IMG/VR virus record: IMGVR_UViG_3300006116_000001
Location: 193-64,192 of that record
Source of the DNA: a virus
Lineage: Duplodnaviria > Caudoviricetes
Length of the DNA: 64,000 nt
Reading direction: 5' to 3' (one strand)
The translations under genes and the position numbers were made by a program. The notes beneath the pieces are model-generated. The model did no database searches. It had not been told where the DNA came from and worked only from the letters and a program-made list of their open reading frames with translations. This document shows, in pieces, positions 2,400 through 23,383 of the stretch; within the stretch, counting starts at the first letter, position 1, and the number at the start of each line of letters is the position of its first letter.

Positions 2400-3200
2400 A
2401 TCTCACCCGTAAAAGAGCTCTGATCTCACCAATACTACAAGAATTTGCCAACCCCGTAAAGATCAATAAGATACTAAGAATGAAGTGACCAAGCCATCTC
2501 CCTTTACTAACCCCACCCATTACCTTCCTGTGTCTGTCCCTAAACCTTCATAACTTTTACCCGTACTATCTTACCCAGTGGTCAGACTTATAAGCTCGGC
2601 AAACCCTAAGTGGTTGATTTGATTGGTCAATTAAACTCTAACTGGTTATTATATTATATTTAGAATAATATATACAGACTAGTTATGTACTTGATTACAT
2701 TATACATTTTATCGTGTAGTCTGACCACTGAGTAGAAAGACACACTTTTACCTCCCACCATCAAAAATAATAATAATTATTCTTTCCCCTATAGACTTTA
2801 ATAGGAATAATAACTATTATAATTATCTCCCAGAGTACATTTTACTCTACTCAACAGACACACACCCTGAAAAGGTTTTTTGACTAATAAAATCAATCAC
2901 TTAGGGCTTTGTCTTAATACCAAAAGTGACCCAGAAAGTGCCCCATAGGTCCGGCTATAGGGCCAATTTTGGCTCAAATATCAAGCTTGGCATTTTACCT
3001 AGCTACTTCTAACAAGCACTTTTACCAAGCCTATCCAAGCCATGCCAAGCTTATTAGGCTAGGTTAAACCAAGCTATAAAATAACTATAATAAAACCGAT
3101 GGCTTGGTTAAATTTAATCTAACATATACGGTCCACAAGACTTAGATTATTATAATTAAACGCACAAAACACTGGTAAAACCTAGTAAAAAGGACCCTCA
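2400..3200. promoter_or_regulatory. AT-rich non-coding control region with inverted repeats (divergent promoters and/or origin)
   Basis: No ORF of 60 aa or more; strongly AT-rich; several imperfect inverted repeats and phased CCAAGC hexamers. Confidence 0.55.
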
Positions 3201-3202
3201 AG

Positions 3203-3550
3203 ATGAAGCCTGACGTACTCTCACAGATCCCTTCCTTGCGTGTAGAGGAAGGCATAATAGAGGAGGCTGACATGGCCGTCTTTGTAAAAACAGCAGATGG
3301 TCAGAAAGTCTGCTCAATAGCCTTGGATGGTTATGACTCTACGTCCGCTGAACAGGTCGCAGCCTGCATCTCAAGGATACCTCTTATGCTTGCCCTTATA
3401 CAGGAGCTAAGGGACCTTGGCGGCGGCTACGACGAAAGAAACAGGCCATTTGGCCGAAGGGCGCCCGTAGCCTATGTTCTTTCTAACGCAAACGCCCTAC
3501 TAAAGGACCTAGAGCCCATCTCTAGCCTGCTCAAGCCACCATCAATGTAA
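3203..3550 (+). CDS. Hypothetical protein
   Basis: 115-aa ORF with AAGGA RBS upstream. Confidence 0.6.
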   Translation: MKPDVLSQIPSLRVEEGIIEEADMAVFVKTADGQKVCSIALDGYDSTSAEQVAACISRIPLMLALIQELRDLGGGYDERNRPFGRRAPVAYVLSNANALLKDLEPISSLLKPPSM

Positions 3551-7143: not shown

Positions 7144-7707
7144 ATGACCCAGTACAGCGAGATGACCAAGAAGGAGCTTCTGGCGGTCGCCAAGGACCTC
7201 GAGATCCAAGGCCGCCACGACATGACCAAGGAAGAGCTGCTCGAGGCCATCCTTGAGGAAGACCCCCAGGATGACGAGGACGGCGAGGAGGACGCGGTCG
7301 AGGTCGCCGACAAGGAGACCCTCGTCGAGATGAAGCGCCGCCGGCCCTCCAATGCCGAGCGAGACGAGAACGGCCGAGTGATCCGCAAGGACCGCAACCT
7401 CTCAGGAAACCTCCCCTTCGAGCCCAAGCTCTATGCCCTCTCCTCCTCCGTCGCCAACGAGCGGCGCTGGACCGAGGAGTATAAGGCGGCCCTGGCCGCC
7501 GCGCCCGGGCAGGTTAAGCTGATCCTCAAGGCCATGCGCCACGAGGGCATCGTGGGCGAGGACGGCCTGCGTGGCGGCGAGATCGTGGAGCTAGCCATTG
7601 CCAAGGGCTATATCTCCACCAAGATTGACCCGCCTGCCCTCTGGGCCTACTACCGCCGCCTCCTCGAGGCGCTGGGCGTGGTTCACATCAACGATGGGGA
7701 GGGGTGA
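7144..7707 (+). CDS. Rho-N-like domain + acidic linker + putative winged-helix domain (paralogue 2 of 3)
   Basis: N-terminus YSEMTKKELLAVAKDLEIQGRHDMTKEELLEAI matches the Rho N-terminal helical motif; C-terminus STKIDPPALWAYYRRLLEALGV. Confidence 0.7.
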   Translation: MTQYSEMTKKELLAVAKDLEIQGRHDMTKEELLEAILEEDPQDDEDGEEDAVEVADKETLVEMKRRRPSNAERDENGRVIRKDRNLSGNLPFEPKLYALSSSVANERRWTEEYKAALAAAPGQVKLILKAMRHEGIVGEDGLRGGEIVELAIAKGYISTKIDPPALWAYYRRLLEALGVVHINDGEG

Positions 7708-7973
7708 TGGCCACCCATAAAAGAAACTCCCTAGCAAATAGGGAGGACCCAAGGCTAGGCAAGCCTGAGGACGCCGAGCTTTACCTGAAAGGGCTTCCAA
7801 AAGCCCTTTCTCACTATCTTAAGTACGAGTCACCAATCTTTTGGTCGCCTAGGTCCGTCTACAATATCTATAGAAAGCACGGCGCCGAGGCCACCCTATA
7901 CCACCTAAGGACTATAAACCGTATGGACGCCATAAGGGTTTACGGGCCGGATTACCCTATACCACCTCTATGA
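7704..7973 (+). CDS. Hypothetical protein
   Basis: 89-aa ORF coupled to the upstream stop. Confidence 0.55.
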   Translation: MMATHKRNSLANREDPRLGKPEDAELYLKGLPKALSHYLKYESPIFWSPRSVYNIYRKHGAEATLYHLRTINRMDAIRVYGPDYPIPPL

Positions 7974-8116
7974 GACTTAACCCAAAAACTAGCCAAGCTT
8001 AACCTCCCATTTTATGGGTTTACGTGGCAGTGGTTCTTATCTATCTCTATATTACTAGAAACTGATAACTCCCCTTTTGATCGTAGGGGTCCCATTAAAC
8101 CAAGGAGAAGAGCAGC

Positions 8117-8506
8117 ATGAAGATCGAGCTTAAGGTCGTCCGAGAGCCGACCAAGGAAGACAAGCTGGCGCCCCAAGCCGCGGTCGTCGTCAAGACCATC
8201 GTCGGCAAGGTCGGCCTCAACGCGTTCATCGACCAGGGCGAGGTGATTGCCGAGCTTGAGGCCAACGAGGAGGCTGGCGTTGAGGGCCTTACCCTTAACA
8301 CCCGTCAACCGCCCTCGCGGATCCTTTCATTCTACAAGAAGCCGCTGATCGACGCCGGCATCATCGAGGTCCAAAAGACCATCGAGGTCAAAGAAAAGGC
8401 TGAGGGCCATGAAGATGCCGAGCCCAAGGCCAAAAAGCCTCGTAAGGCCAAGGCGGCTGAAGAGACCGCCTCTGAAGGTCACAACGTCGAGGCCGCTGCG
8501 GCTTAA
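8117..8506 (+). CDS. Putative winged-helix protein with Lys/Ala-rich tail (paralogue 3 of 3)
   Basis: AGGAG RBS; NTRQPPSRILSFYKKPLIDAGII motif; tail KAKKPRKAKAA. Confidence 0.7.
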   Translation: MKIELKVVREPTKEDKLAPQAAVVVKTIVGKVGLNAFIDQGEVIAELEANEEAGVEGLTLNTRQPPSRILSFYKKPLIDAGIIEVQKTIEVKEKAEGHEDAEPKAKKPRKAKAAEETASEGHNVEAAAA

Positions 8507-8552
8507 GACTATTGGTCACCTTGGGTTTAACCTAAGGTAACCGGTGACGAGT

Positions 8553-8582
8553 GGCCCCCTCTACGTTGGGGTGGAGGGGGCC
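8553..8582 (+). terminator. GC-rich hairpin, probable intrinsic terminator
   Basis: GGCCCCCTCTAC...GTGGAGGGGGCC stem followed by a T-rich stretch, downstream of 8117..8506. Confidence 0.5.
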
Positions 8583-8813
8583 GCTTTAGTATCTAATTTC
8601 CTCTTAAACCTTGGCCAATCTAGCCAAGCCAATAGGGGGTTATCGATGATAACCCCATGGGATACCATCTATATGGTCCCTCAAGCCACGACGTCTGGCG
8701 ATTATGGGATTTCCGGCAAGGCCTATTAGCCTTGACCCACGGCCATGGGCCCAGGCTTTAGAAAATGACGCGCTCCGTCTGCCTGGGGGTAACGAGGAGT
8801 GATGCCCTCCCCA

Positions 8814-8906
8814 TGAGCCACTCCCGTGGCCAAGTGAGCCACTCCCGTGGCCAAGTGAGCCACTCCCGTGGCCAAGTGAGCCACTCCCGTGGCCAAGTGA
8901 GCCACT
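8814..8906. repeat. Perfect 21-bp tandem repeat, 4 copies plus 9 bp (iteron-like)
   Basis: TGAGCCACTCCCGTGGCCAAG at 8814, 8835, 8856 and 8877, partial copy at 8898. Confidence 0.97.
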
Positions 8907-9488: not shown

Positions 9489-9656
9489 ATGACCCCATGG
9501 CCCAAAGACGCTGAAGGCAAAAACATTTCTCTCGGCAAACTTCCTAAAAATGTTCAGCGTCAATTGATGATTGAAAGCGCAGAGCGCGTTAAGCGCACGT
9601 TCGAGCATCCGAAAATGACGCGCCTCATTGAAGCAATTTTGAAAGATTGCCCATGA
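9489..9656 (+). CDS. Hypothetical protein (55 aa)
   Basis: AGGAG RBS; MTPWPKDAEGKNISLGKLP...LKDCP; ATGA overlap with the next gene. Confidence 0.55.
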   Translation: MTPWPKDAEGKNISLGKLPKNVQRQLMIESAERVKRTFEHPKMTRLIEAILKDCP

Positions 9657-9832
9657 CCACCAGTGCAACCATCCCAATCACCGTAACCGCTAATCAATAT
9701 GCCCTCCTCGTTGCCTACGGCTTTTCACCAACAAAAGCCGCTGAGATCGTCCTAGACGCCAAACGCGGCGACCCTTACGCCATTGAATGGCTTAACATCG
9801 TTCTCAAACAAACCAAGGACCCTCGCTCATGA
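9653..9832 (+). CDS. Hypothetical protein
   Basis: ATGA-coupled on both sides. Confidence 0.55.
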   Translation: MTTSATIPITVTANQYALLVAYGFSPTKAAEIVLDAKRGDPYAIEWLNIVLKQTKDPRS

Positions 9833-10095
9833 CCGTTCACGTTAGCACTTCAATTCAGTTAAACACCGCAGACGGTTACGTTAGCACTTCAATTCAGTTA
9901 GACACCGCAGACGGCGATGTATCGTTTGTCGGTATCGCATGCATTCCGCAAAAGGTCGTTGTGAATCTGAGGGTCAATTTTTGGGATTACGCGTCAATCG
10001 TCCTAACCGCCACCCAAGCCCGCGACCTCGCCGCCGTCCTCCTCGCCGAAGCGGCGCGGGCGGATGCTTATAATGGGGAGGTAGGAGAACTATAA
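9829..10095 (+). CDS. Hypothetical protein with a 13-aa internal duplication
   Basis: VSTSIQLNTADGY / VSTSIQLDTADGD. Confidence 0.6.
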   Translation: MTVHVSTSIQLNTADGYVSTSIQLDTADGDVSFVGIACIPQKVVVNLRVNFWDYASIVLTATQARDLAAVLLAEAARADAYNGEVGEL

Positions 10096-10101
10096 TCTGA
10101 C

Positions 10102-10138
10102 GAATAGGCCAAGGCAACAGGATAGCCTTGGCCTATTC
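10102..10138. terminator. Perfect 14-bp hairpin, probable terminator
   Basis: GAATAGGCCAAGGC-9nt-GCCTTGGCCTATTC. Confidence 0.65.
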
Positions 10139-10220
10139 TTACCATTTACAACCGCCCTATAGTCGTCTAGGATGGCCACCTACCCAAAATAAACGCCAAC
10201 TAAAGAACTAAAGGACAATT

Positions 10221-10772
10221 ATGCCAAACCATATGATGGTGGACCTTGAGACCCTTGACACCTCCCCCAGGTCCCTTATCCTTCAGGTGGGGCTCGTGGT
10301 CTTTGACCCTGATGACGACCAAAGGTCCTTTATCTCTAGGTCTTGGAACGTTGACCTAGGCTCCTGCCACGTCCTTGGCGGCACCTACTCCGAGTCAACC
10401 CTCCTCTGGTGGCTTACAAACACAGAGGAGGCAAGGCGGTCCGTAGCCCAGGGCCCACGGGCCCCTATCACCACCGTCCTCCAAGAGCTTGGTCAAACAT
10501 ACCGCTCTAACGGCTGCCAGGCGGTCTGGTCCCACGGCGCCACCTTTGATATCCCAATCCTTGCCTACTACTACGACCGGCTGAAGGCGCCCTTGCCTTG
10601 GAAGTTTTGGGCGGCTAGGGACACAAGGACCCTGTTTGCCCTAGCTAAGGATCTCGCTGGTCATGATATAGAGAAGAGGACGGTTGCGCACACGGCTGAG
10701 GCTGACGCTAGGGCGCAGGCTGAGGACGTTCAGGCGGCGCTTAAGGCGTTGAGAGAAAGGACCTTGGGATAG
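10221..10772 (+). CDS. DEDDh 3'-5' exonuclease (Rv2179c/DexA-like)
   Basis: MVDLETL (ExoI), SHGATFD (ExoII), RDTRT, HTAEADA (ExoIII). Confidence 0.85.
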   Translation: MPNHMMVDLETLDTSPRSLILQVGLVVFDPDDDQRSFISRSWNVDLGSCHVLGGTYSESTLLWWLTNTEEARRSVAQGPRAPITTVLQELGQTYRSNGCQAVWSHGATFDIPILAYYYDRLKAPLPWKFWAARDTRTLFALAKDLAGHDIEKRTVAHTAEADARAQAEDVQAALKALRERTLG

Positions 10773-10775
10773 CCT

Positions 10776-11486
10776 CTAGAGGTCCGCAGCAAGGTCTTCT
10801 GCTACTTTTTTATCTCTAACCATGGCAGAGTGCTTGGTACGCCAAATTAAGCATTCCTCAGCAATCTTTCTTTTGTAGTTTAAGGCTGAATATTCACCCC
10901 TATAAAGATGTTCAATAAGCCTTACAGCTGTTGAGCCGTTTACTGATACTCTAAAAATAGACCTTGCTGTTCCAACTTTTGGTCTCTTATAGCCAAAACC
11001 TTCAATCCAGTCTGCACACCTAGTCATGTCATGTAGGCTGCCAGACCAAGCTATAACTGGATATCTATAGCCTCTGTTTTTAACCCAAGCAACTGTTCCA
11101 TCACCGTCGCAAAGACCTCGCCAAAAATGCTTAGATTCGTATATATCCTCTCGCAGTTCTTTTTTAAGATTTAAGGCTAGGAGAGGATAATATGGCTTTG
11201 ACGAGGAAGCAATATACATTTGACCCTTAGTCTCTCCAGTTAATTCATCCTTTTTAGCAAAGCTATTTTTTCCATGTTTTCTTGATGAAACTTTTCCTTC
11301 GCCTTTAACGTAATATAAAAAAGCTTGAACAGGTTCCTCGTGAACCTGTGCAAATACCACGCAACCTCCTTTTTTTCTGTATAGACCAGGTTTATATTCC
11401 TGGCCTACAATAGAGTTCATACAACCGTCTGCTTGAAGATACCCTATCCAATACAGGTCTTGGTCAGTCAAAGGATCAGTAAACAT
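10776..11486 (-). mobile_element. Free-standing double-motif LAGLIDADG homing endonuclease, antisense to its neighbours
   Basis: YWIGYLQADGCM and HFWRGLCDGDGTV motifs; AT-rich; opposite strand to the operon. Confidence 0.85.
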
Positions 11487-11511
11487 TTTTGGTGTTAATT
11501 CCTAATAATCA

Positions 11512-11528
11512 AGTGTATATTATACACT
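11512..11528. promoter_or_regulatory. Perfect palindrome between divergent genes
   Basis: AGTGTATA-T-TATACACT. Confidence 0.55.
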
Positions 11529-11562
11529 GTGATGCTAACCAAGTACACTATGGAGAAAAACC

Positions 11563-12510
11563 TTGGCAAACGCTAGAGGTAAGGAGATAGACACCACCGA
11601 CCTTGACATCGACGCCGGTGAGGAAAGAATAATTCAGCACAGAGACCTCAGCGCTCATGTTTGGCGATGGACCCATGTTGCTAAACGTCTTGGGACAGGC
11701 GGCCGTTATAAGACCTCTAACGTGCTTGACATAGGCTGCGGTTGCGATCTTCCCTTGGCCCGTATGCTATACTCAAACCGCTTTATTCCAAATGACTATT
11801 GCGGCGTGGACTATAACCCGTCAAAAAAATTTAAGACCTCCATGTTTAATAACGGTCGCTTTCCGTTATACGCCTATGGCGCCGTAGACTTTGCCTCAGA
11901 AAAGGTTCTCATTCGCCCTCCTGAGATGGGGGAGATCACTGACAGCCTATGCCTATATGTTGATGGGGATAACTTTGAGGCCGAGCACACCCTACCCAAC
12001 GTTTTAGTATCGTTTGAAAACCTAGAGCACGTCGAGGCGGGCCACATCAGGCGCCTGCTTATAAAGATGCTAGAGGTGATGCGAGCCACACTTAGGGTTA
12101 AAAATGAGGAGCCTGTGGCCTTTATCTCAACACCTTGCTATGACGCCAAGGTTGGGGCTGCTGCTAACCACTGCAGCGAGGTAACTCGAGACGCCCTAGG
12201 GGCCGTCATGGAGGACCTAGGTTTTTCTATCCTTGAAAACTATGGGACTTTTGCCTCTATCAAGGACTATAGGGATAACCTGCTCAAAGAACGCCCCGAG
12301 CTTACAAGGCTTTATCATGAGCTCCACGCCTACTATGACGTTAACGCTCTAGCTAACTTTTTTGCACCAATTGTCCCACAGTGGTCTAGAAACAACATAT
12401 GGGTTGTTGGGATAGCAAAGGAAGGCTATGAACGTAGGTTCCCCTCCCTCTCAAGCGTCCCTGGCCCCTGGACCTCTAGCGACCGCTGGCGTGAGCTGGC
12501 GGGAGAATAG
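11563..12510 (+). CDS. Class I SAM-dependent methyltransferase (small-molecule type)
   Basis: VLDIGCG motif I; YCGVDYN motif II; VSFENLEHV; AFISTP; TTG start with GGAG RBS. Confidence 0.8.
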   Translation: MANARGKEIDTTDLDIDAGEERIIQHRDLSAHVWRWTHVAKRLGTGGRYKTSNVLDIGCGCDLPLARMLYSNRFIPNDYCGVDYNPSKKFKTSMFNNGRFPLYAYGAVDFASEKVLIRPPEMGEITDSLCLYVDGDNFEAEHTLPNVLVSFENLEHVEAGHIRRLLIKMLEVMRATLRVKNEEPVAFISTPCYDAKVGAAANHCSEVTRDALGAVMEDLGFSILENYGTFASIKDYRDNLLKERPELTRLYHELHAYYDVNALANFFAPIVPQWSRNNIWVVGIAKEGYERRFPSLSSVPGPWTSSDRWRELAGE

Positions 12511-12551
12511 CCCCACAACCCTTAAATCCTACCCATCAAGGAGCACCCCAC

Positions 12552-13127
12552 GTGACAACGGACACCCCTCGAGACAAACTCTATAGAGACACCGCCCGCC
12601 GGATAGTCGAGATCATCTACCCGGAGGCTTCACCCGAAAGAAAAGGCAACGCCATGCGGACGGTCGTCCACCAGATGCGTGAAAGCCTCGCCCTGATGAC
12701 CCACGACATCAGGGAGTTTCATGAAAAGTTTGGCCTAGGCTACGACGGGCCGCCAAGGCTGCTTTCCCACGACCTTCGTGAGCTACGAGCCAAGCGGCTG
12801 ATAGAGGAGGCCGAGGAGTACCTTAACGCCGACCTGTCAGAGGAGCAGGACGAGGACGGCGTAAACTTTCAAGCCACCCCCGAGGAGCAGATGGAGGCCG
12901 AGCTAGACGCCCTCGTCGACGTCGTGTACGTGGCCCTTGGGACAGCCTACCTAAGCGGCTACCCCTTTGCCAAGGCATGGCAGCGGGTCCATGCGGCCAA
13001 CATGGCCAAGGTTCGCGCTGAGCGGGCAGAGGACAGCAAGCATGGCTCAACCTACGACATCATAAAGCCTGAGGGTTGGGTCCCCCCGTCACACAAGGAC
13101 CTTTTGTTCCCGTCAGCTGAGGGGTAG
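12552..13127 (+). CDS. All-alpha NTP pyrophosphatase (MazG-like/DR2231-type dUTPase family)
   Basis: LIEEAEEYL...ELDALVDVVYV...AWQRVHAANMAKV...IIKPEGWVPP. Confidence 0.85.
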   Translation: MTTDTPRDKLYRDTARRIVEIIYPEASPERKGNAMRTVVHQMRESLALMTHDIREFHEKFGLGYDGPPRLLSHDLRELRAKRLIEEAEEYLNADLSEEQDEDGVNFQATPEEQMEAELDALVDVVYVALGTAYLSGYPFAKAWQRVHAANMAKVRAERAEDSKHGSTYDIIKPEGWVPPSHKDLLFPSAEG

Positions 13128-13133
13128 CCTCCC

Positions 13134-14165
13134 ATGCCCCTTCAAAGTTTTCCAATAATAGCCCTTGTTGGGCCCGATGCAACAGGCAAGTCGACACTAG
13201 CTGCCAAGCTAGGGGAGCTCTACAACTACCAGTATCAGCACGCGACCTACCGGTTTAAGGACAAGATGGACCTCTACCACCTTGCCTACCTTGACCTTGC
13301 CTTAAGGAAGTCGGTCAACGGCCCCGTCGTCATGGACCGTTGGTGGCCGTGCGAGCACGCCTACGCTGAGGTCTTTCGCCAAGGCCCCAGCTCCCCCAGC
13401 TACCAATGGCCCTACTACGGGCAGATGCTTGACCGTGTCGCCCTTAAGCACGGCGTCCTTTATGTCTTTTGTTTGCCTAGGGACAAGGGCCGATACTTGG
13501 CCCACTTTGATAGGACAAGGCGGCAACGACCTGAGATGTTTGACAGCGTCTCAGCCGTCTATGACCAGTATGAGAGGCTCCTTAGCGGCCTTAAGGGCCA
13601 CCCTAACCTTATACGCTACGACATCTTTGACGACGCCAAGCCTTTTTACTCCGAGCTTAACAGCCTGGCGTGGCGCTCGTTTGTCTCGGCCACCTCCGGC
13701 GCCGACTTTGCCGCAGGTATTGACGACCGGCGCTTTGCCGGTAACCTTAACGCCAGGCTTCTTTTGATTGGGGATAGGTCTAACAAACGCACGAGAAGGA
13801 CCTCCTACCCCTTTATCGCCGGCCACTCTTGCTCGCCCTGGATCACTAGGGCCCTAAGCAACCTTGGCGTCAAGGAGGCCGACGTGGCCTGGGTTAACCT
13901 TCATGACGAGAGGGGCCGCGTCCAGTGGACCAAGGTCGAGCTTGACGCCTTCTATCACATGACGTTTGTGGCGATGGGCGCCTCTGCCCAGGCCTCCTTG
14001 ACCAAGATGGGCTATCGCTTTGAGCGGGTCCCTCACCCGCAATACTACACAAGGTTTCACCACCATGTGACCAGGCCTGAGCGGCTAGTCAAGCTGTTTG
14101 AGGACCACGGGCTTTTTTCTACGCCAGCCAAGGTTATCTATGACCCTCTTAGGGAGTATGCGTGA
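13134..14165 (+). CDS. P-loop dNMP kinase fused to a uracil-DNA-glycosylase-like domain
   Basis: GPDATGKST Walker A and MDRWWPCEHAY (TMK-like DR motif); C-terminal LLLIGDRSN...VAMG...VPHPQY resembles the UDG fold. Confidence 0.7.
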   Translation: MPLQSFPIIALVGPDATGKSTLAAKLGELYNYQYQHATYRFKDKMDLYHLAYLDLALRKSVNGPVVMDRWWPCEHAYAEVFRQGPSSPSYQWPYYGQMLDRVALKHGVLYVFCLPRDKGRYLAHFDRTRRQRPEMFDSVSAVYDQYERLLSGLKGHPNLIRYDIFDDAKPFYSELNSLAWRSFVSATSGADFAAGIDDRRFAGNLNARLLLIGDRSNKRTRRTSYPFIAGHSCSPWITRALSNLGVKEADVAWVNLHDERGRVQWTKVELDAFYHMTFVAMGASAQASLTKMGYRFERVPHPQYYTRFHHHVTRPERLVKLFEDHGLFSTPAKVIYDPLREYA

Positions 14166-15037
14166 TGGTTGCCGCTAGGATGGAAAAAGACAAGACGCCT
14201 AGCACCAAGATAGAAAAAGGCAAGACGCCCAACGTCAACCAGGTTTGGCTTTCCCTACTTGAGGAGATCATGATAAGGGGCCAGGAGTGCGCCCCAAGGG
14301 GGAAGGCGATCAAGGAGCTTTTGGGCTATCAGACAAAAATTAGCATGAGAAGCCCCGTAGTCACGGTTGCCGCAAGACGCCTTGGCTATAGGTTTGCCGC
14401 AGCCGAGGCCGCCTGGATCTTGTCAGGGGACAACCGTGTCTCCACCATCGCCCCTTACGCCTCCCACATCTCACAGTTTTCTGACGACGGCCTGAGGTTT
14501 TTTGGCGCCTATGGGGTCAAGGTCGTTGACCAGCTGCCCTACGTGTGTGAGGCCCTTGCCAAGGACCCCGACACCCGTCAGGCTGTCATAAACATCTGGC
14601 GAGAGAGCCCTAGGCCCTCTAAGGACATCCCCTGCACCTTGTCCCTTCAGTGGCTCATCAGGGATGGTAGCCTACACTGCCTTGACACCATGCGCTCTTC
14701 TGACGCCTGGCTTGGTTGGCCCTATGACGTCATTAACATGAGCCTAATCAGCGCCTACATAAGGCTTGTCCTTAAAACTAGGTATGGCGTTGAGGTTGGC
14801 CTTGGGGACCTAACGCTGACCGCGGGCTCCCAGCATCTGTACGCTGACAATTGGCCCGCTGTTCAAAAGATCCTAGCTGGCGATGACCTAGCCTTGCCTA
14901 CCCCAGACCTTCAGGTGGCTCTCGAGAATATTCCGCTTATTGCTCTTAATACTGAGAACCTTGTTAGCTGTCTTTGGCATATGGCTAACCACGGAGGCCT
15001 TTTAGACGGGATGTCTTTGGCGGAGAAAGGCCTTTGA
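14162..15037 (+). CDS. Thymidylate-synthase-family pyrimidine C5 (hydroxy)methylase, Asp-type
   Basis: DPDTRQAVI, DIPCTL (catalytic Cys), MRSSD, LGWPYDV (Asp where ThyA has Asn177), GSQHLY. Confidence 0.85.
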   Translation: MMVAARMEKDKTPSTKIEKGKTPNVNQVWLSLLEEIMIRGQECAPRGKAIKELLGYQTKISMRSPVVTVAARRLGYRFAAAEAAWILSGDNRVSTIAPYASHISQFSDDGLRFFGAYGVKVVDQLPYVCEALAKDPDTRQAVINIWRESPRPSKDIPCTLSLQWLIRDGSLHCLDTMRSSDAWLGWPYDVINMSLISAYIRLVLKTRYGVEVGLGDLTLTAGSQHLYADNWPAVQKILAGDDLALPTPDLQVALENIPLIALNTENLVSCLWHMANHGGLLDGMSLAEKGL

Positions 15038-15504
15038 ACCGCCCTGACGCCCACACCTACTTTATGTCGATGGCTATCCTTGTCTCAACAAGGGGCACGT
15101 GCCCTAGGCGAAGGGTTGGCTGTGTCCTTGTGGACAGCAACAATTTTGTCCTAGCTACTGGCTATAACGGGACCGCCTCAGGGCTTCCCCACTGCCTAGA
15201 CCAGCCCTGCCCAGGGGCAGGGCTGGCATCGGGGCAGGGGCTAGAGCTTTGCGAGGCCGTTCATGCTGAAAGTAACGCCCTAACCCAGTGCCGTGACACT
15301 CGTGCTATCCAGTCGGTCTACGCCACCACCGCCCCCTGCGTCTCATGCACCAAGATGCTCATAAACACCAGCGCTAAAGCCATCTACTATCTCAGCGACT
15401 ACCCTCAGAAGGAGGCCGAGGGCCTTTGGCGGCGGTCAAGGCCTGGGCGTGAGTGGGTTAGATGGACCGGGACCCTCTTAAGGATGGGGTTTCATGAAAG
15501 GTAG
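15034..15504 (+). CDS. dCMP deaminase (ComEB family)
   Basis: TCPRRRVGCVLV, ATGYNG, VHAESNAL, PCVSC zinc ligands. Confidence 0.92.
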   Translation: MNRPDAHTYFMSMAILVSTRGTCPRRRVGCVLVDSNNFVLATGYNGTASGLPHCLDQPCPGAGLASGQGLELCEAVHAESNALTQCRDTRAIQSVYATTAPCVSCTKMLINTSAKAIYYLSDYPQKEAEGLWRRSRPGREWVRWTGTLLRMGFHER

Positions 15505-17458
15505 AAAATTTGTCCCTAACCCAACGCAGCTCCCCCTTTTCACCCCTGAGTCAGCGTGGCGGTGCCCTGACCCGATAGACTGGCCGGATTTTAGGGGGAG
15601 CTGTAAGGTAATAGGGTTAGATATAGAGTCTTATGACCCAAATCTATTAGAAAGAGGTCCAGGCTTTATCAGGGGTGACGCTCGTGTGGTTGGTATCTCT
15701 CTTGCCTCTGGTGATGGCCAAAAGATCTACCTTCCTATAGGCCACAGTCAGGACAATGTAGCTGATGTTAGGCAAGCTATTAACTATGTAAGGTATCAGC
15801 TAGGCGACCCAAGCATACTCTACTGTGGGGCCAATCTTTTATATGACCTTGAAGGGCTCCATACCCTAGGCATAGAGGTTAAGGGAAAGCTAGGAGATAT
15901 ACAGGTTGCTGAGCCTCTACTAGATGAAGAAAAAGAAGGCGGGTATAGCCTTAACGCGTTAGCTAAAGAATACCTTAATGAAACTAAAGATGAGCTTATA
16001 TTAAACGAGGCTGCTGCGGCATACGGTGTTTCTCCAAAAGGCGGGATGAATATTATACCAGCCCGATTTGTTGCTGAATATGCCGAGACCGATGCCTACC
16101 TACCAGTAAAGATATTTGAAAAGCAGGCAGAGTCTTTAAAAAAAGAAGATTGTTGGGGCGTTTTTCTTATGGAGCAAAGGCTTCAAAAAACGCTATTAAA
16201 GATGCGCTTAAGAGGCTGTAGGCTTGATGTTTTAAAGACTGAGCAGCTAAACGAGCAATTTTTAAAGGATGAGGTTCTATACTTTTCTAATGTTCAAGAG
16301 CATAGGGGGTTAGGCCCAAGGATTAACCCTGCATCAGCCGTAGACGTAGCAAGGGTGCTTCGTGAGCAAGGCGTGTTTGATATCCCGGTCACAGCAAAAG
16401 GTGCTGACTCCATATCAAATGAGTGGTTAGAGGGTCTTGACCTACCATTTGCAAAGGCAGTATACGCTTGGCGAAGGGTAGCCAAGTACAGAGGAGATTT
16501 TATTGAAAAATTCCTAAAAGAACAGGTTAAGGGCCGCCTTCACTCAAACTGGCACTCACTACGTAATTTTAACGAGGAAAAAGGCTCAGCCTTTGGAACA
16601 AGGTCCGGTAGACTCTCTGCAACTAATGTAAACTTGACCCAAATACCGGCAAGGGATGAGGAATATGGGTCAGTTATACGTAGTCTTTTTATAGCAGATG
16701 AAGGTAAAGTTTTTTTAAAGGGGGATGAGTCACAACAGGAATTTAGATGGACTCTTGACTATGCCGTAAGACTCCGTTTAACAGGTGCTGCTGAGGCTAA
16801 CCAGCGCTATCTAGATGACCCTAGGACCGACTTTCACTCTATGACCCAAGCCCTAATACTTGAAAAAACCGGTCGTGATATAGGGCGCTTCATGGCTAAG
16901 ACTGTAAATCTTTCAAGGCTTTATGGCGCCGGGGTAAACAAAGTTTCACTGATGTTAGGAGTTACTCCTGATGAGGCCAAAACAATAATAGAGGCTTGGA
17001 ACGCAGGCCTGCCTTTTGTTAGAGAGCTTGAGGCAAGGATAACAAAGGCAGCTAATGAAAGGGGTTGGGTAAAAACAATATCAGGGTATAAAAGAAGGTT
17101 TCCTTTATGGGAGCCAGCTGATAGACAAGCCTTTGGTTATGTCAAACCAATAAAAGACCTTAATAAAGCGATTAAGCTTTGGGGTAAGGTAAAGCGAGCT
17201 TACACGCACAAGGCCATGAATAGCGTAATTCAAGGAAGTAGCTCTTCGCAGATAAAGCAAGTGCTAATTCAACTTGATGATGAAAACCTAACCTGTAATG
17301 CCTGCATCCATGATGAGGTCATAGGTTCTTATGAAACTAACGAGGAGTTTAAAAGAGTCAAATGGATCATGGAAAATGCTGTAGAGACAAAGGTACCTTT
17401 TCTTGCAGACGTTGGTGTGGGTCCTAATTGGGCAGAAACTAAAAAAATTACTGACTAA
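15494..17458 (+). CDS. DNA polymerase family A with 3'-5' exonuclease
   Basis: GLDIES, GANLLYDL, YAETD (exonuclease); SGRLS; GDESQQEFR (motif A); AKTVNLSRLYG (motif B); IHDE (motif C). Confidence 0.93.
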   Translation: MKGRKFVPNPTQLPLFTPESAWRCPDPIDWPDFRGSCKVIGLDIESYDPNLLERGPGFIRGDARVVGISLASGDGQKIYLPIGHSQDNVADVRQAINYVRYQLGDPSILYCGANLLYDLEGLHTLGIEVKGKLGDIQVAEPLLDEEKEGGYSLNALAKEYLNETKDELILNEAAAAYGVSPKGGMNIIPARFVAEYAETDAYLPVKIFEKQAESLKKEDCWGVFLMEQRLQKTLLKMRLRGCRLDVLKTEQLNEQFLKDEVLYFSNVQEHRGLGPRINPASAVDVARVLREQGVFDIPVTAKGADSISNEWLEGLDLPFAKAVYAWRRVAKYRGDFIEKFLKEQVKGRLHSNWHSLRNFNEEKGSAFGTRSGRLSATNVNLTQIPARDEEYGSVIRSLFIADEGKVFLKGDESQQEFRWTLDYAVRLRLTGAAEANQRYLDDPRTDFHSMTQALILEKTGRDIGRFMAKTVNLSRLYGAGVNKVSLMLGVTPDEAKTIIEAWNAGLPFVRELEARITKAANERGWVKTISGYKRRFPLWEPADRQAFGYVKPIKDLNKAIKLWGKVKRAYTHKAMNSVIQGSSSSQIKQVLIQLDDENLTCNACIHDEVIGSYETNEEFKRVKWIMENAVETKVPFLADVGVGPNWAETKKITD

Positions 17459-17543
17459 GCCTTTGAAGGTCCCAATTATTTAAATTTTTCTTACATTCTT
17501 CAGGAAGCCTACTTTTTCCTAAACAACGCCATGGAGATCTCCC

Positions 17544-17771
17544 GTGATTGACAAGACTACCATCATCAGCACGCCAGCCTATTGCCACCGCACCTCTCAG
17601 ACCGTTCAGCTGATCTCCCTCAATGGCGACGAAAAGACTGCCACGTGGTGCAGCAAGGGCCGGTCGGTCTTTGAGGGTGACGTGCCGGGTTGGGGCCTCC
17701 TTTGGGCCTCTTGGTGGTACTCAAGGGACAAGGGCCTGATCGACCCCCACGACCCACAATGGCACAAATGA
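17544..17771 (+). CDS. Hypothetical protein
   Basis: 75-aa ORF, GGAG RBS. Confidence 0.5.
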   Translation: MIDKTTIISTPAYCHRTSQTVQLISLNGDEKTATWCSKGRSVFEGDVPGWGLLWASWWYSRDKGLIDPHDPQWHK

Positions 17772-18208
17772 ACGAGGAGCAGTTTTATCGCAACCACGTG
17801 AGGCCAGTGCTAGAGCGCTTTGGTGAGCATACCCGCATTGAAAACAGCATCTCAGCCGGCGTCTTTGACCTCTCCTACGCTCTTCCAGTTAATGAGGTCT
17901 ATGGTGTCCACGGCTGGCTGGAGCTAAAGGTAGCCCGGGGTGGCAAGATCACCTTCCAGCGCTTTCAACTTCCTTGGGCGCGCTCGCGCGCCCGTATCAC
18001 CAAGGGCCTTGGGCTCTGGGTCCTTGTCACTGACGGTGAGCTTATCTACCTTTATAACATCTTAGACGTCCTTGACGCCCCCAAGACCATAGCCAAGGCC
18101 TCTGACGGGAAGCCGCTAACCGTCGTTGCCTTAGGCTCCATGAAACCCACGATCTACTCCCAACAGCCTTGGCCCTGGGAAAGGATAGTGAGGGTGCTGG
18201 CCTCTTAA
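17768..18208 (+). CDS. PD-(D/E)xK nuclease (VRR-NUC/resolvase-like)
   Basis: ATGA-coupled start; RIEN...GVFDLSY...WLELKV...FQLPW. Confidence 0.7.
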   Translation: MNEEQFYRNHVRPVLERFGEHTRIENSISAGVFDLSYALPVNEVYGVHGWLELKVARGGKITFQRFQLPWARSRARITKGLGLWVLVTDGELIYLYNILDVLDAPKTIAKASDGKPLTVVALGSMKPTIYSQQPWPWERIVRVLAS

Positions 18209-18270
18209 CATAACCTATACACAGGCCTTCCTAAAGGTGATAGGGTGGCCTACCATCAAAGGAGCATTGA

Positions 18271-18864
18271 ATGAATACAAACGCTATAGACCCCGAGCTA
18301 TTAAGGGAGGCCCTTGACGACGCGTCAGAGGCCCCCTCAGACGACAAGCTTAGCCTGGTCGCAAAGCTCGTTAAGCACCAGACCTACCTTGAGGACCGCA
18401 AGGAAGACCTCGAGGAGATGCTAAAGGAGTGCAACCAGGAGCTAGAGGCTGTCCGCACGAGGCAGCTTCCGGACGCCCTCCTAGAGGCCGGCTGTCAGGC
18501 GTTTGAGACAAAGGACGGCCTTAAAGTCAGGCTTGAAAAGGTCTGCTACGTCTCAATCAAAAAGAGTGATGAGCCGGCGGCCTTTGATTGGTTTGCCAGC
18601 AACGGCCATGGCGGTGTCATTGAAACGTCTGTCCTCATCCCCCTTGGAAAGGGTGGCCACGACACCGGAAAGGAGCTTGTTGAGCGCCTAGCTAAGCTAA
18701 ACGACGTCCCTGAGGTTAAGCTCTCAGAGACCATCCACTGGGCCACGCTAAGGGCCCTTGGCAAGGCGTTAATAGCCGAGAACGAGGAGGCCGGGACCCC
18801 CTTGCCCCCTGAGATCATCAAGCTTACCCCGACTAACGTCTCTAAGATCAAGAGACCTACCTGA
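18271..18864 (+). CDS. Conserved phage replication-region protein (coiled-coil N-terminus)
   Basis: 197-aa ORF, AAGGAG RBS; position between nuclease and SSB-like genes. Confidence 0.6.
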   Translation: MNTNAIDPELLREALDDASEAPSDDKLSLVAKLVKHQTYLEDRKEDLEEMLKECNQELEAVRTRQLPDALLEAGCQAFETKDGLKVRLEKVCYVSIKKSDEPAAFDWFASNGHGGVIETSVLIPLGKGGHDTGKELVERLAKLNDVPEVKLSETIHWATLRALGKALIAENEEAGTPLPPEIIKLTPTNVSKIKRPT

Positions 18865-18918
18865 ATTTAAGATCAAGAGACCTGCCTAACCAACCCCACC
18901 TAAAAGGAACCATAAAAC

Positions 18919-19734
18919 ATGTCTAAAAATGCAGTTGCAGTTAAAGAAAGCGCTGAGGTCGTTGAGGCCTCCTTGCCTGCGGGCTATGACCTTGATGAGC
19001 TTCAAAGGGACGCCGCGGCCAACCCTCAGCTAAGCGCCGCCGACATCGCCATCCCCTTCTTGGTCATCCTTCAGACCAACTCGCCTCAGGTCAACCCCGC
19101 CAAGACCCAGTATATCCCTGGCGCCACGGCGGGGATGATCTATAACAGCGTCAGCGGGGAGGTCTACGACGGCCGCACCCAAGGGGTGGTAATCGTCCCT
19201 TGCGCCTATCACAGGGCCTACGTTGAGTGGGTTCACCGCGACAACGGTGGCGGCTGGGTGGCGGAGCACAGCATTGACTCCGACATCTTGTCTAGGACCA
19301 CCCTTGACGAGAAAAAGAAGCCTCGGCTTGAGAACGGCAACGTGATCACCGAGACTGCCTACAACTACGTCTTGTTTCAAAACCCCACGACCGGCGCCTG
19401 GTCCCAGGCCCTTGTCGCCATGTCATCTACCCATCTCAAGGCCAACCGCAAGCTCAACCAGATGATCACGGCCTCAAAGATCCCTGGCACGGACATCCAG
19501 GCACCTCGGTTTTTGTACGCCTACCAGCTGACCTCTACCATCGAGACCAAGGGCGAGAACGCCTTCTTTGTGCCGGAGCTTAAGAAGATCGAGAGCCCCA
19601 TCGAGGTGACCCTCTACCGCCACGCCAAAAAATACGCTGAGGCGGTGAACAGCGGTAAGGTTCAAGTTGGGGCCGCCACCCAGGTCCCTGCCGCCGAGGA
19701 AAGTATCGACCCGGAGACCGGTGAGATCCTTTAG
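18919..19734 (+). CDS. Putative single-stranded DNA-binding/recombination protein
   Basis: 271-aa ORF with acidic C-terminal tail (EESIDPETGEIL) in the replication module; high-expression codon style. Confidence 0.5.
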   Translation: MSKNAVAVKESAEVVEASLPAGYDLDELQRDAAANPQLSAADIAIPFLVILQTNSPQVNPAKTQYIPGATAGMIYNSVSGEVYDGRTQGVVIVPCAYHRAYVEWVHRDNGGGWVAEHSIDSDILSRTTLDEKKKPRLENGNVITETAYNYVLFQNPTTGAWSQALVAMSSTHLKANRKLNQMITASKIPGTDIQAPRFLYAYQLTSTIETKGENAFFVPELKKIESPIEVTLYRHAKKYAEAVNSGKVQVGAATQVPAAEESIDPETGEIL

Positions 19735-19759
19735 CCATAACTAATAATCGATAAAAGCT

Positions 19760-19803
19760 AACGGGTGGTCTTGACACATAGCAAAGTGTAAAGGCCACCC
19801 GTT
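19760..19803. terminator. Long hairpin after the SSB-like gene
   Basis: AACGGGTGGTCTT-GACAC-8nt-GTGTA-AAGGCCACCCGTT followed by TTT. Confidence 0.55.
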
Positions 19804-19843
19804 TTAGTACCGTGGATAGCTACCCTAGCAAGGATTATTCCGA

Positions 19844-21301
19844 GTGGCTGACTTTTCAACCTATCTCTTTAACCTCACCCCCTATAGCTATCAGCTGAGG
19901 ATCCTTGAGGAAACGTCAGATAAGGCCTATTGGGCGTGGCTGCTTGAGATGGGCCTGGGAAAGTCAAGGATCTTAATAGACAACGCGGCCTACCTTTACC
20001 TAAAGGGCGAGATAGACGCCCTTGTCTTTGTGGGGCCTAAGGGGTCCTACGCCAACTTTTATTGGGACCAACTGCCAACCCATCTGCCGCCCTCTGTGCC
20101 CTCACAAGCCTTTCTTTTTTCAACCCTAGTCGTCGCTAAGAGGTCAGGCAAGGACGAGCTGGCGCGTTTTCTCAAGCCGGCCAAGGCCCTTAAGGTCTTT
20201 ATCATTAATGTCGAGGCGTTTATTACCGACTCAGGAAAGGCAGCCTTGACGGCCGTCTTTAAGAGCTTCCCTAAGGTTATATTCGCCCTTGACGAATCAA
20301 CCTGTGTTAAGAACATAGATGCCGCCAGGTCAAAGGCCGTCTATGCCTGGGCAGCCAAGGCCAAGTATAGAAGGATAATGACCGGCTCACCGGTCACCCA
20401 GTCCCCTTTAGACCTTTATGGCCAGTCGTTGGTCCTTGGCAAAGGCATCCTTGGCCATAGCTCGTTTTACTCTTTTAGGGGCGAATACGCCACCCTCGTG
20501 ACCGACTACTTTGGCCAGAGGGCCGTCAAGCGGGTCTCCGGCTATAGAAATCTTGACAAGCTGTCAGAGGTCATAAAGAGCTTCTCAACGCGGCTTACAA
20601 AGGAGGAGTGCCTTGACCTGCCGCCTAAGGTGTACTCCAAGCTTTATGTTGAGATGACGCCAGAGCAGCAGAGGCTCTACGAAAAGATGAGGGACGAAGC
20701 TCTTCTAACGCTAAATAGCGGTGAGGAGGTTGAGGTCACCACGGCCCTCGCTCAGATCGTTAAGCTGCATCAGATCTCCTGCGGGCAGCTTAAGCTAGAC
20801 GACCGCTACGTCTCTATTGAGAACAATAGGGTCCCAGCGCTGCTTACTCTTCTAGAGGGCTATGCAGGCAAGGTGATCATCTGGGCCAACTACAGACAGA
20901 CCTTAGAGGACGTCATTAAGGCCTTGAGGGAGGGCTACGGGGACGAGGCCGTCGTAGGCTACTACGGCGGGGTTAGTGAGGCGGATAGGGCTCTGGCCAT
21001 CAAGGGCTTTCAGGACCCCAAATCCCCAGTTAGGTTTTTTGTGGCAAACCCCCAGAGCGGCGGCTACGGCCTCACGTTAACGGCAGCTCAACTTGTCGTC
21101 TACTACTCTAATGGCTACTCTCTTGAGCAGCGGCTTCAAAGCGAGGACCGTGCTCACCGCATCGGGCAAACAGGCGCGGTAACCTATGTCGACCTAGTCT
21201 CGCGTGGGACCGTTGATGAAAAGATCATCGAGGTCCTAAGAGGCAAGAAAGACCTGGCAAATGAGGTGATGGGGGTTAGAAACTGGGCGGCCTGGCTTTA
21301 G
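19844..21301 (+). CDS. SNF2-family (SF2) helicase/translocase
   Basis: EMGLGKS, ALDES, MTGSP, GGYGLTL, QSEDRAHRIGQ. Confidence 0.92.
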   Translation: MADFSTYLFNLTPYSYQLRILEETSDKAYWAWLLEMGLGKSRILIDNAAYLYLKGEIDALVFVGPKGSYANFYWDQLPTHLPPSVPSQAFLFSTLVVAKRSGKDELARFLKPAKALKVFIINVEAFITDSGKAALTAVFKSFPKVIFALDESTCVKNIDAARSKAVYAWAAKAKYRRIMTGSPVTQSPLDLYGQSLVLGKGILGHSSFYSFRGEYATLVTDYFGQRAVKRVSGYRNLDKLSEVIKSFSTRLTKEECLDLPPKVYSKLYVEMTPEQQRLYEKMRDEALLTLNSGEEVEVTTALAQIVKLHQISCGQLKLDDRYVSIENNRVPALLTLLEGYAGKVIIWANYRQTLEDVIKALREGYGDEAVVGYYGGVSEADRALAIKGFQDPKSPVRFFVANPQSGGYGLTLTAAQLVVYYSNGYSLEQRLQSEDRAHRIGQTGAVTYVDLVSRGTVDEKIIEVLRGKKDLANEVMGVRNWAAWL

Positions 21302-22489: not shown

Positions 22490-22922
22490 TCCTTCACCAC
22501 CCTCGACCCTTCACCCGCCTTACCGCCGCCAGCCTTCAGTCATTCAACGCCTAGAGGCGCAAATCGACGCCCTCAAGCGCGAGAACGCTCGCCTCAGAGC
22601 CAGCAACGAGATCCTTCAACAGCGCTCGATCGTCACACACTTCACAGCCCCGCCGCCATTAAAAATGCCGCCGCAGGAAACAATCCTCCTGGCCGCCCTC
22701 CTTAAAGGCGGTCTTAAAAGCAAGAGCCATCTGCTAGACATTCTCGCCGACCACAACCCCACGCCGCCTGGCGTAAAGATCGTCGACGTCTTGGTTTGTC
22801 GCCTGCGCAAACACCTGCGCCCTCACGGCGTCACCATCACAACCGTCTGGTCAAGAGGCTACATGATGACCCCTCAACAACTCGATCAGTTCTACAAAGC
22901 CTTTCCGGACGCAAAACGATGA
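22482..22922 (+). CDS. CtrA-like OmpR/PhoB winged-helix protein lacking a receiver domain
   Basis: KIVDVLVCRLRKHL...ITTVWSRGYMM versus CtrA KIIDVFICKLRKKL...IETVWGRGYVL; N-terminal coiled coil. Confidence 0.8.
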   Translation: MADPSPPSTLHPPYRRQPSVIQRLEAQIDALKRENARLRASNEILQQRSIVTHFTAPPPLKMPPQETILLAALLKGGLKSKSHLLDILADHNPTPPGVKIVDVLVCRLRKHLRPHGVTITTVWSRGYMMTPQQLDQFYKAFPDAKR

Positions 22923-23383
22923 CACCTTGGTCCCCTGAAGAAATTGCCACGCTGCAACGGCTCATCACCAAAGAAGGCAAGTCCTTTGGCGAGTGCGCCA
23001 AGATCCTAAATCGATCACGAAATGCGGTGGCCGGCAAGGCTTACAATTTGCAACTCAAGGCCCCTGACGCTAAACCTATGTTAACAAGGGTTGCAGCTAA
23101 ACCCCGCCTACCATCTAACGCCCGCCACGCCAAGCCCGACGCGCCGCTTTACGTCGCTTCAAGCCTGCCCACGCTCCTCCACAATCCCGACCCGCAGCTC
23201 GCCATCCCAATCATCAACAACGGCCAATGCAAATGGCCGATCGGCGACCCTCAACACCCCACATTCCGCTTCTGCACAAACCAACGCGCCAACGACCACC
23301 AGCCCTACTGCGCAACCCACAACGCTAAAGCCTTCATCAAGCCCAACGTCCCAGCAACCAAACTCAAAACAGGATTTCCCTAA
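22919..23383 (+). CDS. gcrA: GcrA cell-cycle regulator homologue
   Basis: WSPEEIATLQRL...SRNAVAGKAYNL (HTH) and CKWPIGDP...FRFC...PYCATH (Cys-rich domain); ATGA-coupled start at 22919. Confidence 0.9.
   Translation: MTPWSPEEIATLQRLITKEGKSFGECAKILNRSRNAVAGKAYNLQLKAPDAKPMLTRVAAKPRLPSNARHAKPDAPLYVASSLPTLLHNPDPQLAIPIINNGQCKWPIGDPQHPTFRFCTNQRANDHQPYCATHNAKAFIKPNVPATKLKTGFP

Follow-up and report, generated by a model that had tools for sequence, protein, structure and literature searches.

Phages modify the cytosines of their DNA by several described routes. In the 5-hydroxymethylcytosine (5hmC) pathway of T4, the enzymes are gp42 (dCMP hydroxymethylase), gp56 (dCTPase), gp1 (dNMP kinase), Cd (dCMP deaminase) and the alpha- and beta-glucosyltransferases. 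On cytosine-modified metavirome contigs, a thymidylate synthase (TS) homologue with Asp at position 177 (numbering of Escherichia coli ThyA) co-locates with a PRA-PH protein, a deaminase of the deoxycytidine monophosphate (dCMP) deaminase family and a family A DNA polymerase (Pol A) (PMC8670742; 10.1101/2024.12.05.627091), and a carbamoyltransferase found in other such cassettes converts 5hmC to 5-carbamoyloxymethylcytosine (Yang et al. 2021, PMC8670742; preprint 10.1101/2024.12.05.627091). A further route, that of phages RB69 and DLP3, uses 5-hydroxy-dCMP synthases and leads to arabinosylated 5-hydroxycytosine (Lee et al. 2026, PMC13326640). Here we describe a cassette of this kind in a virus of the Caudoviricetes (IMG/VR record IMGVR_UViG_3300006116_000001). 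The window analysed, a stretch of 64,000 nucleotides (positions 193 to 64,192 of the record), is nearly the whole of the 64,192-bp record, which has direct terminal repeats and is rated 100% complete. As judged from its predicted enzymes (Table 1), the cassette most likely replaces the cytosine of the phage DNA with 5hmC. An original prediction, made from the sequence alone, had proposed a novel pathway at this locus. The core of the cassette, namely the Asp177 TS homologue, PRA-PH protein, deaminase and Pol A, had already been described, and only the step assigned to an S-adenosylmethionine (SAM) methyltransferase is new. We place the reading as a whole, a T4-type pre-replicative replacement of cytosine followed by a new last methylation step, just short of an even chance.

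The locus has the same logic and activity set as the T4 pathway. It differs from T4 in that its TS homologue lies in a separate clade, its pyrophosphatase is MazG-like whereas gp56 has the dUTPase fold, its kinase is thymidylate-kinase-like and fused to a domain resembling uracil-DNA glycosylase (UDG), and it has a Hen1-like methyltransferase and no glucosyltransferase that we could find. Searches of the genome for GT1, GT2 and T4 glucosyltransferases, a carbamoyltransferase and a trimeric dUTPase found none (other glycosyltransferase families were not searched), in agreement with the earlier statement that a glucosyltransferase is lacking. The metavirome cassettes found by MetaGPA are like the window in their core genes, in the co-location of these genes and in the decorating enzyme encoded beside the TS gene, which acts there, and is predicted to act here, on the hydroxyl of 5hmC; this enzyme is a carbamoyltransferase in those cassettes and a SAM methyltransferase in the window. 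The methyltransferase family goes unmentioned in the main text of both papers from the MetaGPA group (PMC8670742; 10.1101/2024.12.05.627091), and full-text searches of the literature, with most subscription journals outside their scope, returned no report of methoxymethylcytosine or of a phage methyltransferase acting on 5hmC.

We aligned the TS homologue with reference sequences taken from annotated records: E. coli ThyA, RB69 td, T4 gp42, RB69 gp48, the Xp12 and PaMx74 enzymes, and the deoxyuridine monophosphate (dUMP) hydroxymethylases of SPO1, ViI, phiW-14 and M6. Its P-C-T and G-W-P-Y-D-V motifs align to C146/H147 and N177 of ThyA and thus give Thr147 and Asp177, as had been read earlier from P-C-T and L-G-W-P-Y-D-V. 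ThyA positions 143, 147, 169 and 177 sort every experimentally characterised TS-family class in the alignment: they read L/H/D/N in ThyA, D/N/D/N in the dUMP hydroxymethylases (SPO1, ViI, phiW-14, M6), N/P/D/D in the 5-methyl-dCMP synthases of Xp12 and PaMx74, E/T/N/D in the 5-hydroxy-dCMP synthase RB69 gp48 and D/T/D/D in the 5-hydroxymethyl-dCMP (5hm-dCMP) synthase T4 gp42. The window enzyme likewise reads D/T/D/D, and its full signature (D143/C146/T147/D169/D177) is identical to that of gp42. In metaviromes, positions 177 and 147 best separate cytosine-modified from unmodified phage contigs (MetaGPA, PMC8670742), and in T4dCH the Asp three residues before the catalytic Cys, Asp145, activates water, the D145N mutant being inactive; the hydroxymethylase signature allows Asp or Glu here (PMC6400193). 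The D-I-P-C motif of the window enzyme carries this Asp, at position 143. The dCMP specificity attributed to Asp177 in the original prediction is backed by the metavirome comparison.

The enzyme lacks the C-terminal tail of ThyA, which the Xp12 enzyme retains, and shares an S-D-D-G...G-A-Y-G-P block with the dUMP hydroxymethylases. Its best match in the PDB is MilA, a CMP hydroxymethylase (3.7e-22), and its single local match to T4 gp42 covers 64 residues at 31% identity. With ultrafast bootstrap 99 and SH-aLRT 97, a maximum-likelihood tree of 37 TS sequences, which did not include the NEB-tested TS sequences that produce 5-methyl-dCMP, united the clades of the window, of gp42 and of the dUMP hydroxymethylases and left the Xp12/PaMx74 enzymes and canonical TS outside. 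The phylogeny with the gp42, Xp12 and SPO1/M6 enzymes that had been suggested for this locus therefore groups the window with the hydroxymethylases and not with Xp12. Inside this superclade the window enzyme stands outside the gp42 clade; judged by its position in the tree, it forms a clade of its own and does not belong to the gp42 family proper. Forcing the window clade together with the Xp12/PaMx74 methylases cost 24.6 log-likelihood units (approximately unbiased (AU) test, p = 0.036). Judging from its sequence signature and phylogeny, the enzyme would very probably take dCMP as its substrate, and its product would probably be 5hm-dCMP.

Two other assignments of the TS homologue were rejected. 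Canonical ThyA has L143, H147 and N177 where the window has D/T/D, and the NCBIfam ThyA models scored far under their cut-offs. The 5-hydroxy-dCMP synthases RB69 gp48 and DLP3 gp80 are like the window in Asp177, in an acidic residue at position 143 and in a pathway in which a hydroxylated dCMP is then decorated; however, D169N, which is diagnostic of these flavin-dependent enzymes (PMC13326640), is absent from the window enzyme, which keeps Asp169 where RB69 gp48 has Asn in the same alignment. Nor does it occur in any of the 64 homologues that are linked to the methyltransferase in the first sample described below, and no glycosyltransferase of the families searched was found in the window genome. 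Because Asp169 is kept, the 'methoxy' base (a methylated 5-hydroxycytosine) that had been offered as an alternative is disfavoured. The Xp12/PaMx74 dCMP methyltransferases also have Asp177 and adjoin a dCMP-family deaminase, but they differ in N143/P147, the ThyA tail and the neighbouring dihydrofolate reductase (DHFR) gene, whereas the window has D143/T147, no tail, no DHFR and a TS homologue in a separate clade.

Searches of the complete window genome found no second TS, ThyX or DHFR. In the two closest relatives with long flanks, the Asp177 enzyme is accompanied by a canonical ThyA (L/H/D/N; 49-56% identity to E. coli ThyA), whose gene (L050:1759-2592 and L051:1383-2291) lies upstream of the cassette at a distance of about 6 kb.

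The methyltransferase gene was linked to that of the TS homologue almost without exception. Our first sample comprised 80 viral loci centred on the methyltransferase, 64 with enough flank and 16 cut short; 16 further adequate loci came from a second sample, for which a distant member of the family served as the seed. A TS homologue with the D-C-T/S-D-D signature occurred within about 3 kb of the methyltransferase in 64/64 loci of the first sample and 15/16 of the second (79/80 in both). The exception is a complete 71-kb genome in which a D177 TS homologue lies about 30 kb from the methyltransferase. This distant homologue (L156, in the record of L148) reads R/T/D/D, and Arg143 occurs in no characterised class. 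Three lineages, which differ in gene order, account for the linked TS genes: the window clade, the T4 gp42 clade (100/97) and a third lineage. TS and kinase genes were found without the methyltransferase, for example in T7-like pelagiphages. This dependence in one direction (TS without methyltransferase, and not the reverse) is as expected of an enzyme that acts on the TS product. Sequence and phylogeny show this linkage, the signatures of dCMP use and of hydroxymethylation, and the folds given below.

Some of these loci and their relatives have features of their own. In uncultured phages, a dCMP hydroxymethylase with 44-49% identity to T4 gp42 adjoins a member of the methyltransferase family (L061:7292-9277; L063; L115-L117; L122; L124); the order there is TS, methyltransferase, deaminase, and a homologue of the window kinase was not detectable nearby. 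The T7-like pelagiphages carry a short kinase that lacks the UDG-like domain, together with a D/T/D/D enzyme annotated as 'thymidylate synthase' (L002 (HTVC200P) 7541-8819; L019, L021-L024, L029-L035), and these abundant marine phages may, by this signature, have DNA of the 5hmC type. In two relatives without the 300-aa methyltransferase, the position just upstream of the MazG gene is taken by other methyltransferase genes: in one they encode a C5 cytosine DNA methylase and a short 215-aa Methyltransf_23 protein (L027:3285-3932 and L027:3978-5027), and in the other the product is 870 aa long and contains a C5 DNA methylase domain (L040:2925-5537). C5 DNA methylases are odd in phages predicted to replace cytosine.

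The AlphaFold (AF2) model of the methyltransferase has a pLDDT of 94. In structure searches its neighbours were class I methyltransferases acting on small molecules or RNA, of which many were O-methyltransferases and none a DNA methyltransferase; the match to Hen1 had a Z of 15.2 at 18% identity. Assignment as a DNA methyltransferase was rejected, there being no such structural neighbour and neither a (D/N/S)PP(Y/F) nor a P-C motif; on this point the earlier reading, which had named a small-molecule methyltransferase, is supported. Searches of the PDB with the single sequences of the methyltransferase and of the kinase fusion were uninformative. When a profile built from 49 members of the methyltransferase family was compared with PDB sequences, it matched, in order, HEN1 (8.3e-5), human HENMT1 (6e-4) and bacterial Hen1 (4e-3), with UbiG far weaker (0.06). 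In this profile SAM motif I aligned to that of Hen1 (3htx, 5wy0, 3jwi), the invariant E152-x-x-E155-H156 aligned to E-V-I-E-H of HEN1, and S-T-P-C-Y-D aligned to S-T-P-N-Y-E. In HEN1 the E-x-x-E-H triad acts together with a His further along the chain to bind Mg2+, by which the hydroxyl is positioned for methylation. We take the fourth metal ligand of HEN1 to be His860, followed by an H-x-x-E-W-T-R block. H203 and E206 are invariant in the phage family, in the sequence H-C-S-E-V-T-R, a part over which there is no alignment to Hen1, and H203 may be the corresponding ligand.

At E 8e-5 the phage protein bears a weak likeness to Hen1 and HENMT1, from which it differs in its N-terminal, inserted and C-terminal elements. 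The context differs as well, being RNA repair for Hen1 and deoxynucleotide metabolism for the window methyltransferase. By sequence, the phage enzyme is a distant relative of Hen1 and not a member of that family. The phage family is almost entirely viral and acidic (median pI 6.0). From the strict gene linkage and the family resemblance, we slightly favour the view that the methyltransferase acts on the 5-hydroxymethylated base; that its product is specifically the methyl ether is a tentative proposal on the same grounds. Similarly tentative is the proposal that a large, virus-specific Hen1-like family O-methylates 5hm-dCMP, or 5hmC in DNA; 5-methoxymethylcytosine would then replace cytosine in a widespread group of phages from fresh water, the sea and soil, to which the cultured AXL3 and PW916 belong.

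The remaining enzymes fit a precursor pathway. The pyrophosphatase scored 32.9 bits against PF01503 (gathering cut-off 21.3), matched 3nl9 and the MazG-like DR2231 in the PDB, and is kept beside the methyltransferase in most loci; we predict it to be a dCTP (perhaps dUTP) pyrophosphatase, a functional counterpart of T4 gp56. The deaminase scored 72.9 bits against PF00383, above the cut-off, and its best PDB match is the Streptococcus mutans dCMP deaminase 2hvv (2.7e-18), to which its HAE and PCxxC zinc motifs align intact. It is predicted to shunt dCMP to dUMP for the host ThyA. The Pol A gene lies directly 3' of the deaminase gene in most related loci, a co-location also reported in a preprint (10.1101/2024.12.05.627091). 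Nothing shows that this polymerase is 'dedicated', as it had been called; it is simply the replicative polymerase of the phage, and as such must accept the modified dCTP.

The kinase fusion named in the original prediction was borne out by its AF2 model (pLDDT 92). In Foldseek searches the N-terminal half matched deoxynucleoside monophosphate (dNMP) and deoxynucleoside kinases, including thymidylate kinases, and the C-terminal half matched the family-4 UDGs 1l9g and 1ui1, and also 4zby. An exhaustive search retrieved 1507 representative homologues, most of the same two-domain length, where a word-index search had found 2; one homologue, AXL3 gp29, is 26% identical over the full length. The kinase is predicted to phosphorylate the modified dCMP. 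In the UDG-like half, which is basic, F227, N255, H301 and P302 are nearly invariant, and by analogy with family-4 UDGs we take them to be the base-stacking Phe, an Asn and the His-Pro of motif B. Family-4 UDGs have a motif A that reads G-E-(A/G)-P-G and four Fe-S cysteines; the domain has the fold and the motif-B His-Pro of this family, but its motif A reads G-D-R-S-N and it has a single Cys. The domain does not track the methyltransferase, and either occurs without the other. PolA-UDG fusions are found in phages whose genomes are T-modified (PMC13697223). Like them, the window protein joins a UDG fold to an enzyme of replication or precursor supply, in a phage predicted to have a modified pyrimidine; it differs from them in its partner, a dNMP kinase, and in its G-D-R-S-N motif and missing Fe-S cysteines. 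By analogy with these fusions, the domain may be active in removing uracil or in sensing bases.

In the pathway that we propose, the MazG-like enzyme would convert dCTP to dCMP, and the TS homologue, with methylene-tetrahydrofolate and water, would convert dCMP to 5hm-dCMP. The thymidylate-kinase-like domain would phosphorylate 5hm-dCMP, host NDP kinase would complete the triphosphate, and the phage Pol A would incorporate it. Part of the dCMP would be diverted by the deaminase to dUMP for the host thymidylate synthase. The Hen1-like O-methyltransferase, probably metal-dependent, would methylate the hydroxymethyl oxygen, most likely on the nucleotide, to give 5-methoxymethylcytosine in the virion DNA. 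All substrates in this scheme are inferred, as are the methylated atom and whether the methyltransferase works on the nucleotide or on DNA.

Two cultured phages carry the cassette. Stenotrophomonas phage AXL3 and its relative PW916 encode the methyltransferase, pyrophosphatase, kinase fusion, TS homologue and deaminase. AXL3 DNA is resistant to 35 of 37 restriction enzymes and is cut by just two, both with A/T-only sites; its authors left the nature of the modification unnamed. As ThyX is encoded by AXL3 too, this phage can do without its Asp177 enzyme for making dTMP. If our reading is true, the cassette would explain the G/C modification behind this resistance, and with two cultured carriers the question is testable now. 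The reading would also imply a new natural DNA base, a hypermodification finished by the transfer of a methyl group and not of a sugar or carbamoyl group, with a bearing on how abundant aquatic phages escape restriction and CRISPR; it would add a new 5hmC-specific SAM alkyltransferase, of interest for 5hmC mapping. The four-position signature (143, 147, 169, 177) can be used to re-annotate phage 'thymidylate synthase' genes.

Several points weigh against a hydroxymethylated cytosine that is then methylated. The published Ser/Thr-x-Tyr hydroxymethylase element (T4dCH Ser94-x-Tyr96, with Ser/Thr two residues before the catalytic-base Tyr; PMC6400193) is missing from the window clade, which reads G-A-Y or G-S-Y. 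For this reason we call the window enzyme hydroxymethylase-like and do not file it in the gp42 family, although the dUMP hydroxymethylases of ViI and phiW-14 likewise read Gly-Ala-Tyr. The tree has long branches, and its AU p-value is only 0.036. In the NEB screen, five of seven tested Asp177 TS enzymes made 5-methyl-dCMP, and the neighbouring deaminases act on 5-methyl-dCTP (10.1101/2024.12.05.627091). The methyltransferase loci examined were 103 of at least 338, and the linkage counts overstate the number of independent events because many loci come from related phages. A search of the PDB with methyltransferase residues 180-256 returned nothing relevant, leaving the fourth metal ligand of Hen1 unaligned. 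To our knowledge, Hen1 enzymes act on the ribose 2'-OH and not on a base substituent, and we know of no SAM-dependent O-methylation of 5hmC. Finally, the identity of the base, in the window phage and in its relatives, is read from sequence only.

The alternative that survives best, although we consider it rather unlikely, is that the DNA contains plain 5hmC, or 5hmC modified elsewhere, and that the methyltransferase methylates another position (for example N4) or has another job, such as a Hen1-like 2'-O-methylation of RNA 3' ends in anti-defence, co-inherited with the cassette. It draws on the same hydroxymethylase evidence as the methyl-ether reading, the characterised enzymes to which the methyltransferase is most closely related are RNA 3'-end 2'-O-methyltransferases, and the relatives that have TS and kinase without the methyltransferase suggest that 5hmC alone is a viable end state. 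In addition, N4-methyl-5-hydroxymethyl-deoxycytidine is equal in mass to the methyl ether. However, in 80/80 adequate cases, from three TS lineages with differing gene orders, a D177 TS homologue adjoins the methyltransferase or is encoded elsewhere in its genome, an association that is hard to explain by an unrelated function. No Pnkp or RNA-ligase partner turned up among the open reading frames (ORFs) scanned, and an NCBIfam scan of the methyltransferase gave no family at E up to 0.1. As for N4, methyltransferases that act on exocyclic amines normally have the (D/N/S)PP(Y/F) motif, which is absent here.

Improbable, in our estimate, is a pathway of the Xp12/PaMx74 type, in which the TS homologue makes 5-methyl-dCMP, the deaminase converts part of the 5-methyl-dCTP to dTTP, the DNA contains 5-methylcytosine and the SAM methyltransferase is incidental. 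Asp177 alone is common to dCMP methylases, apart from this pathway the window genome encodes no means of making dTMP, and five of the seven tested enzymes cited above, from modules of an Asp177 TS, PRA-PH protein, deaminase and Pol A, make 5-methyl-dCMP and have 5-methyl-dCTP deaminases as neighbours. Against it, position 143 of the window enzyme is Asp and not Asn, and position 147 Thr and not Pro, and T4dCH loses hydroxymethylation upon D145N; the window enzyme has no ThyA-like tail and its genome no DHFR, whereas Xp12 has DHFR beside its enzyme; and the clades are apart at 99/97, with the AU test against joining them. The deaminase, moreover, is closest to ordinary dCMP deaminases and not to the PBCV-1 type (7e-6) that mSCD-B5 resembles.

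Bacimethrin is made by a hydroxymethylase of the TS type together with an N-glycosidase, a kinase and a methyltransferase. These activities formally parallel four of the cassette, in which the UDG-like domain would free the base, and among solved structures the best relative of the TS homologue is MilA, which serves an antibiotic pathway. An analogous small-molecule antimetabolite is nevertheless very improbable: in many cassettes the UDG-like domain or the methyltransferase is missing, the kinase belongs to the dNMP kinases, DNA-precursor metabolism suits the MazG-like enzyme, dCMP deaminase and Pol A, and AXL3 DNA is demonstrably modified.

The genes of the locus are listed in Table 1. Pfam and PHROG searches confirmed the seven plus-strand genes at the coordinates and with the identities first given to them. 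The description of the locus as one operon stood in part: the genes from methyltransferase to Pol A are tightly packed, two neighbouring pairs standing 41 and 6 nt apart and three overlapping by 4, 4 and 11 nt, and a minus-strand homing-endonuclease gene, missed at first, cuts off the exonuclease gene from them. Promoter and terminator scans of positions 9500-18300 gave no more than shuffled sequence, and we therefore draw no claim on operon boundaries from them.

Table 1. Genes of the locus (positions in the 64,000-nt window).
Product	Coordinates	Strand	Support
Rv2179c-like DEDD 3'-5' exonuclease	10221..10772	+	Pfam PF16473 1.8e-36, PHROG 255
Free-standing LAGLIDADG homing endonuclease, 236 aa	10776..11486	-	LAGLIDADG_3 3.6e-5; PHROG 4645 endonuclease 4.2e-11
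Class I SAM methyltransferase, Hen1-related, TTG start	11563..12510	+	Methyltransf_23 1.6e-7
MazG/PRA-PH-like all-alpha NTP pyrophosphatase	12552..13127	+	PF01503 8.8e-8, PHROG 671 3.9e-23
Thymidylate-kinase-like dNMP kinase with family-4-UDG-like domain	13134..14165	+	AF2 model, Foldseek
Thymidylate synthase (TS) homologue	14162..15037	+	Thymidylat_synt 1.6e-22
dCMP deaminase	15034..15504	+	PF00383 2.2e-20
Family A DNA polymerase with 3'-5' exonuclease domain	15494..17458	+	PF00476 6e-46, PF01612 6.7e-9

A megablast search of the region against 50,697 phage records gave zero matches. The window sequence is present in public freshwater metagenome runs from 2017, none of the listed runs being RNA. 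Among 112 related loci screened, the exonuclease gene was matched in MW202621 only, and it is thus a neighbour and not a conserved member of the cassette. Homologues of the LAGLIDADG endonuclease (36-55% identity) occupy other slots of the same cassette (L051:10085-10648; L052:7281-7931 and 2629-3252), and the endonuclease therefore looks mobile inside the module. Downstream of Pol A, a block at window positions 17690-21301 is conserved in most relatives and comprises a small helicase-like ORF, a Pam3 gp33-like protein (DUF7307), a Pam3 gp34-like protein and an SNF2 helicase. A homologue of the cell-cycle regulator GcrA (positions 22796-23383; 2e-20) suggests an alphaproteobacterial host.

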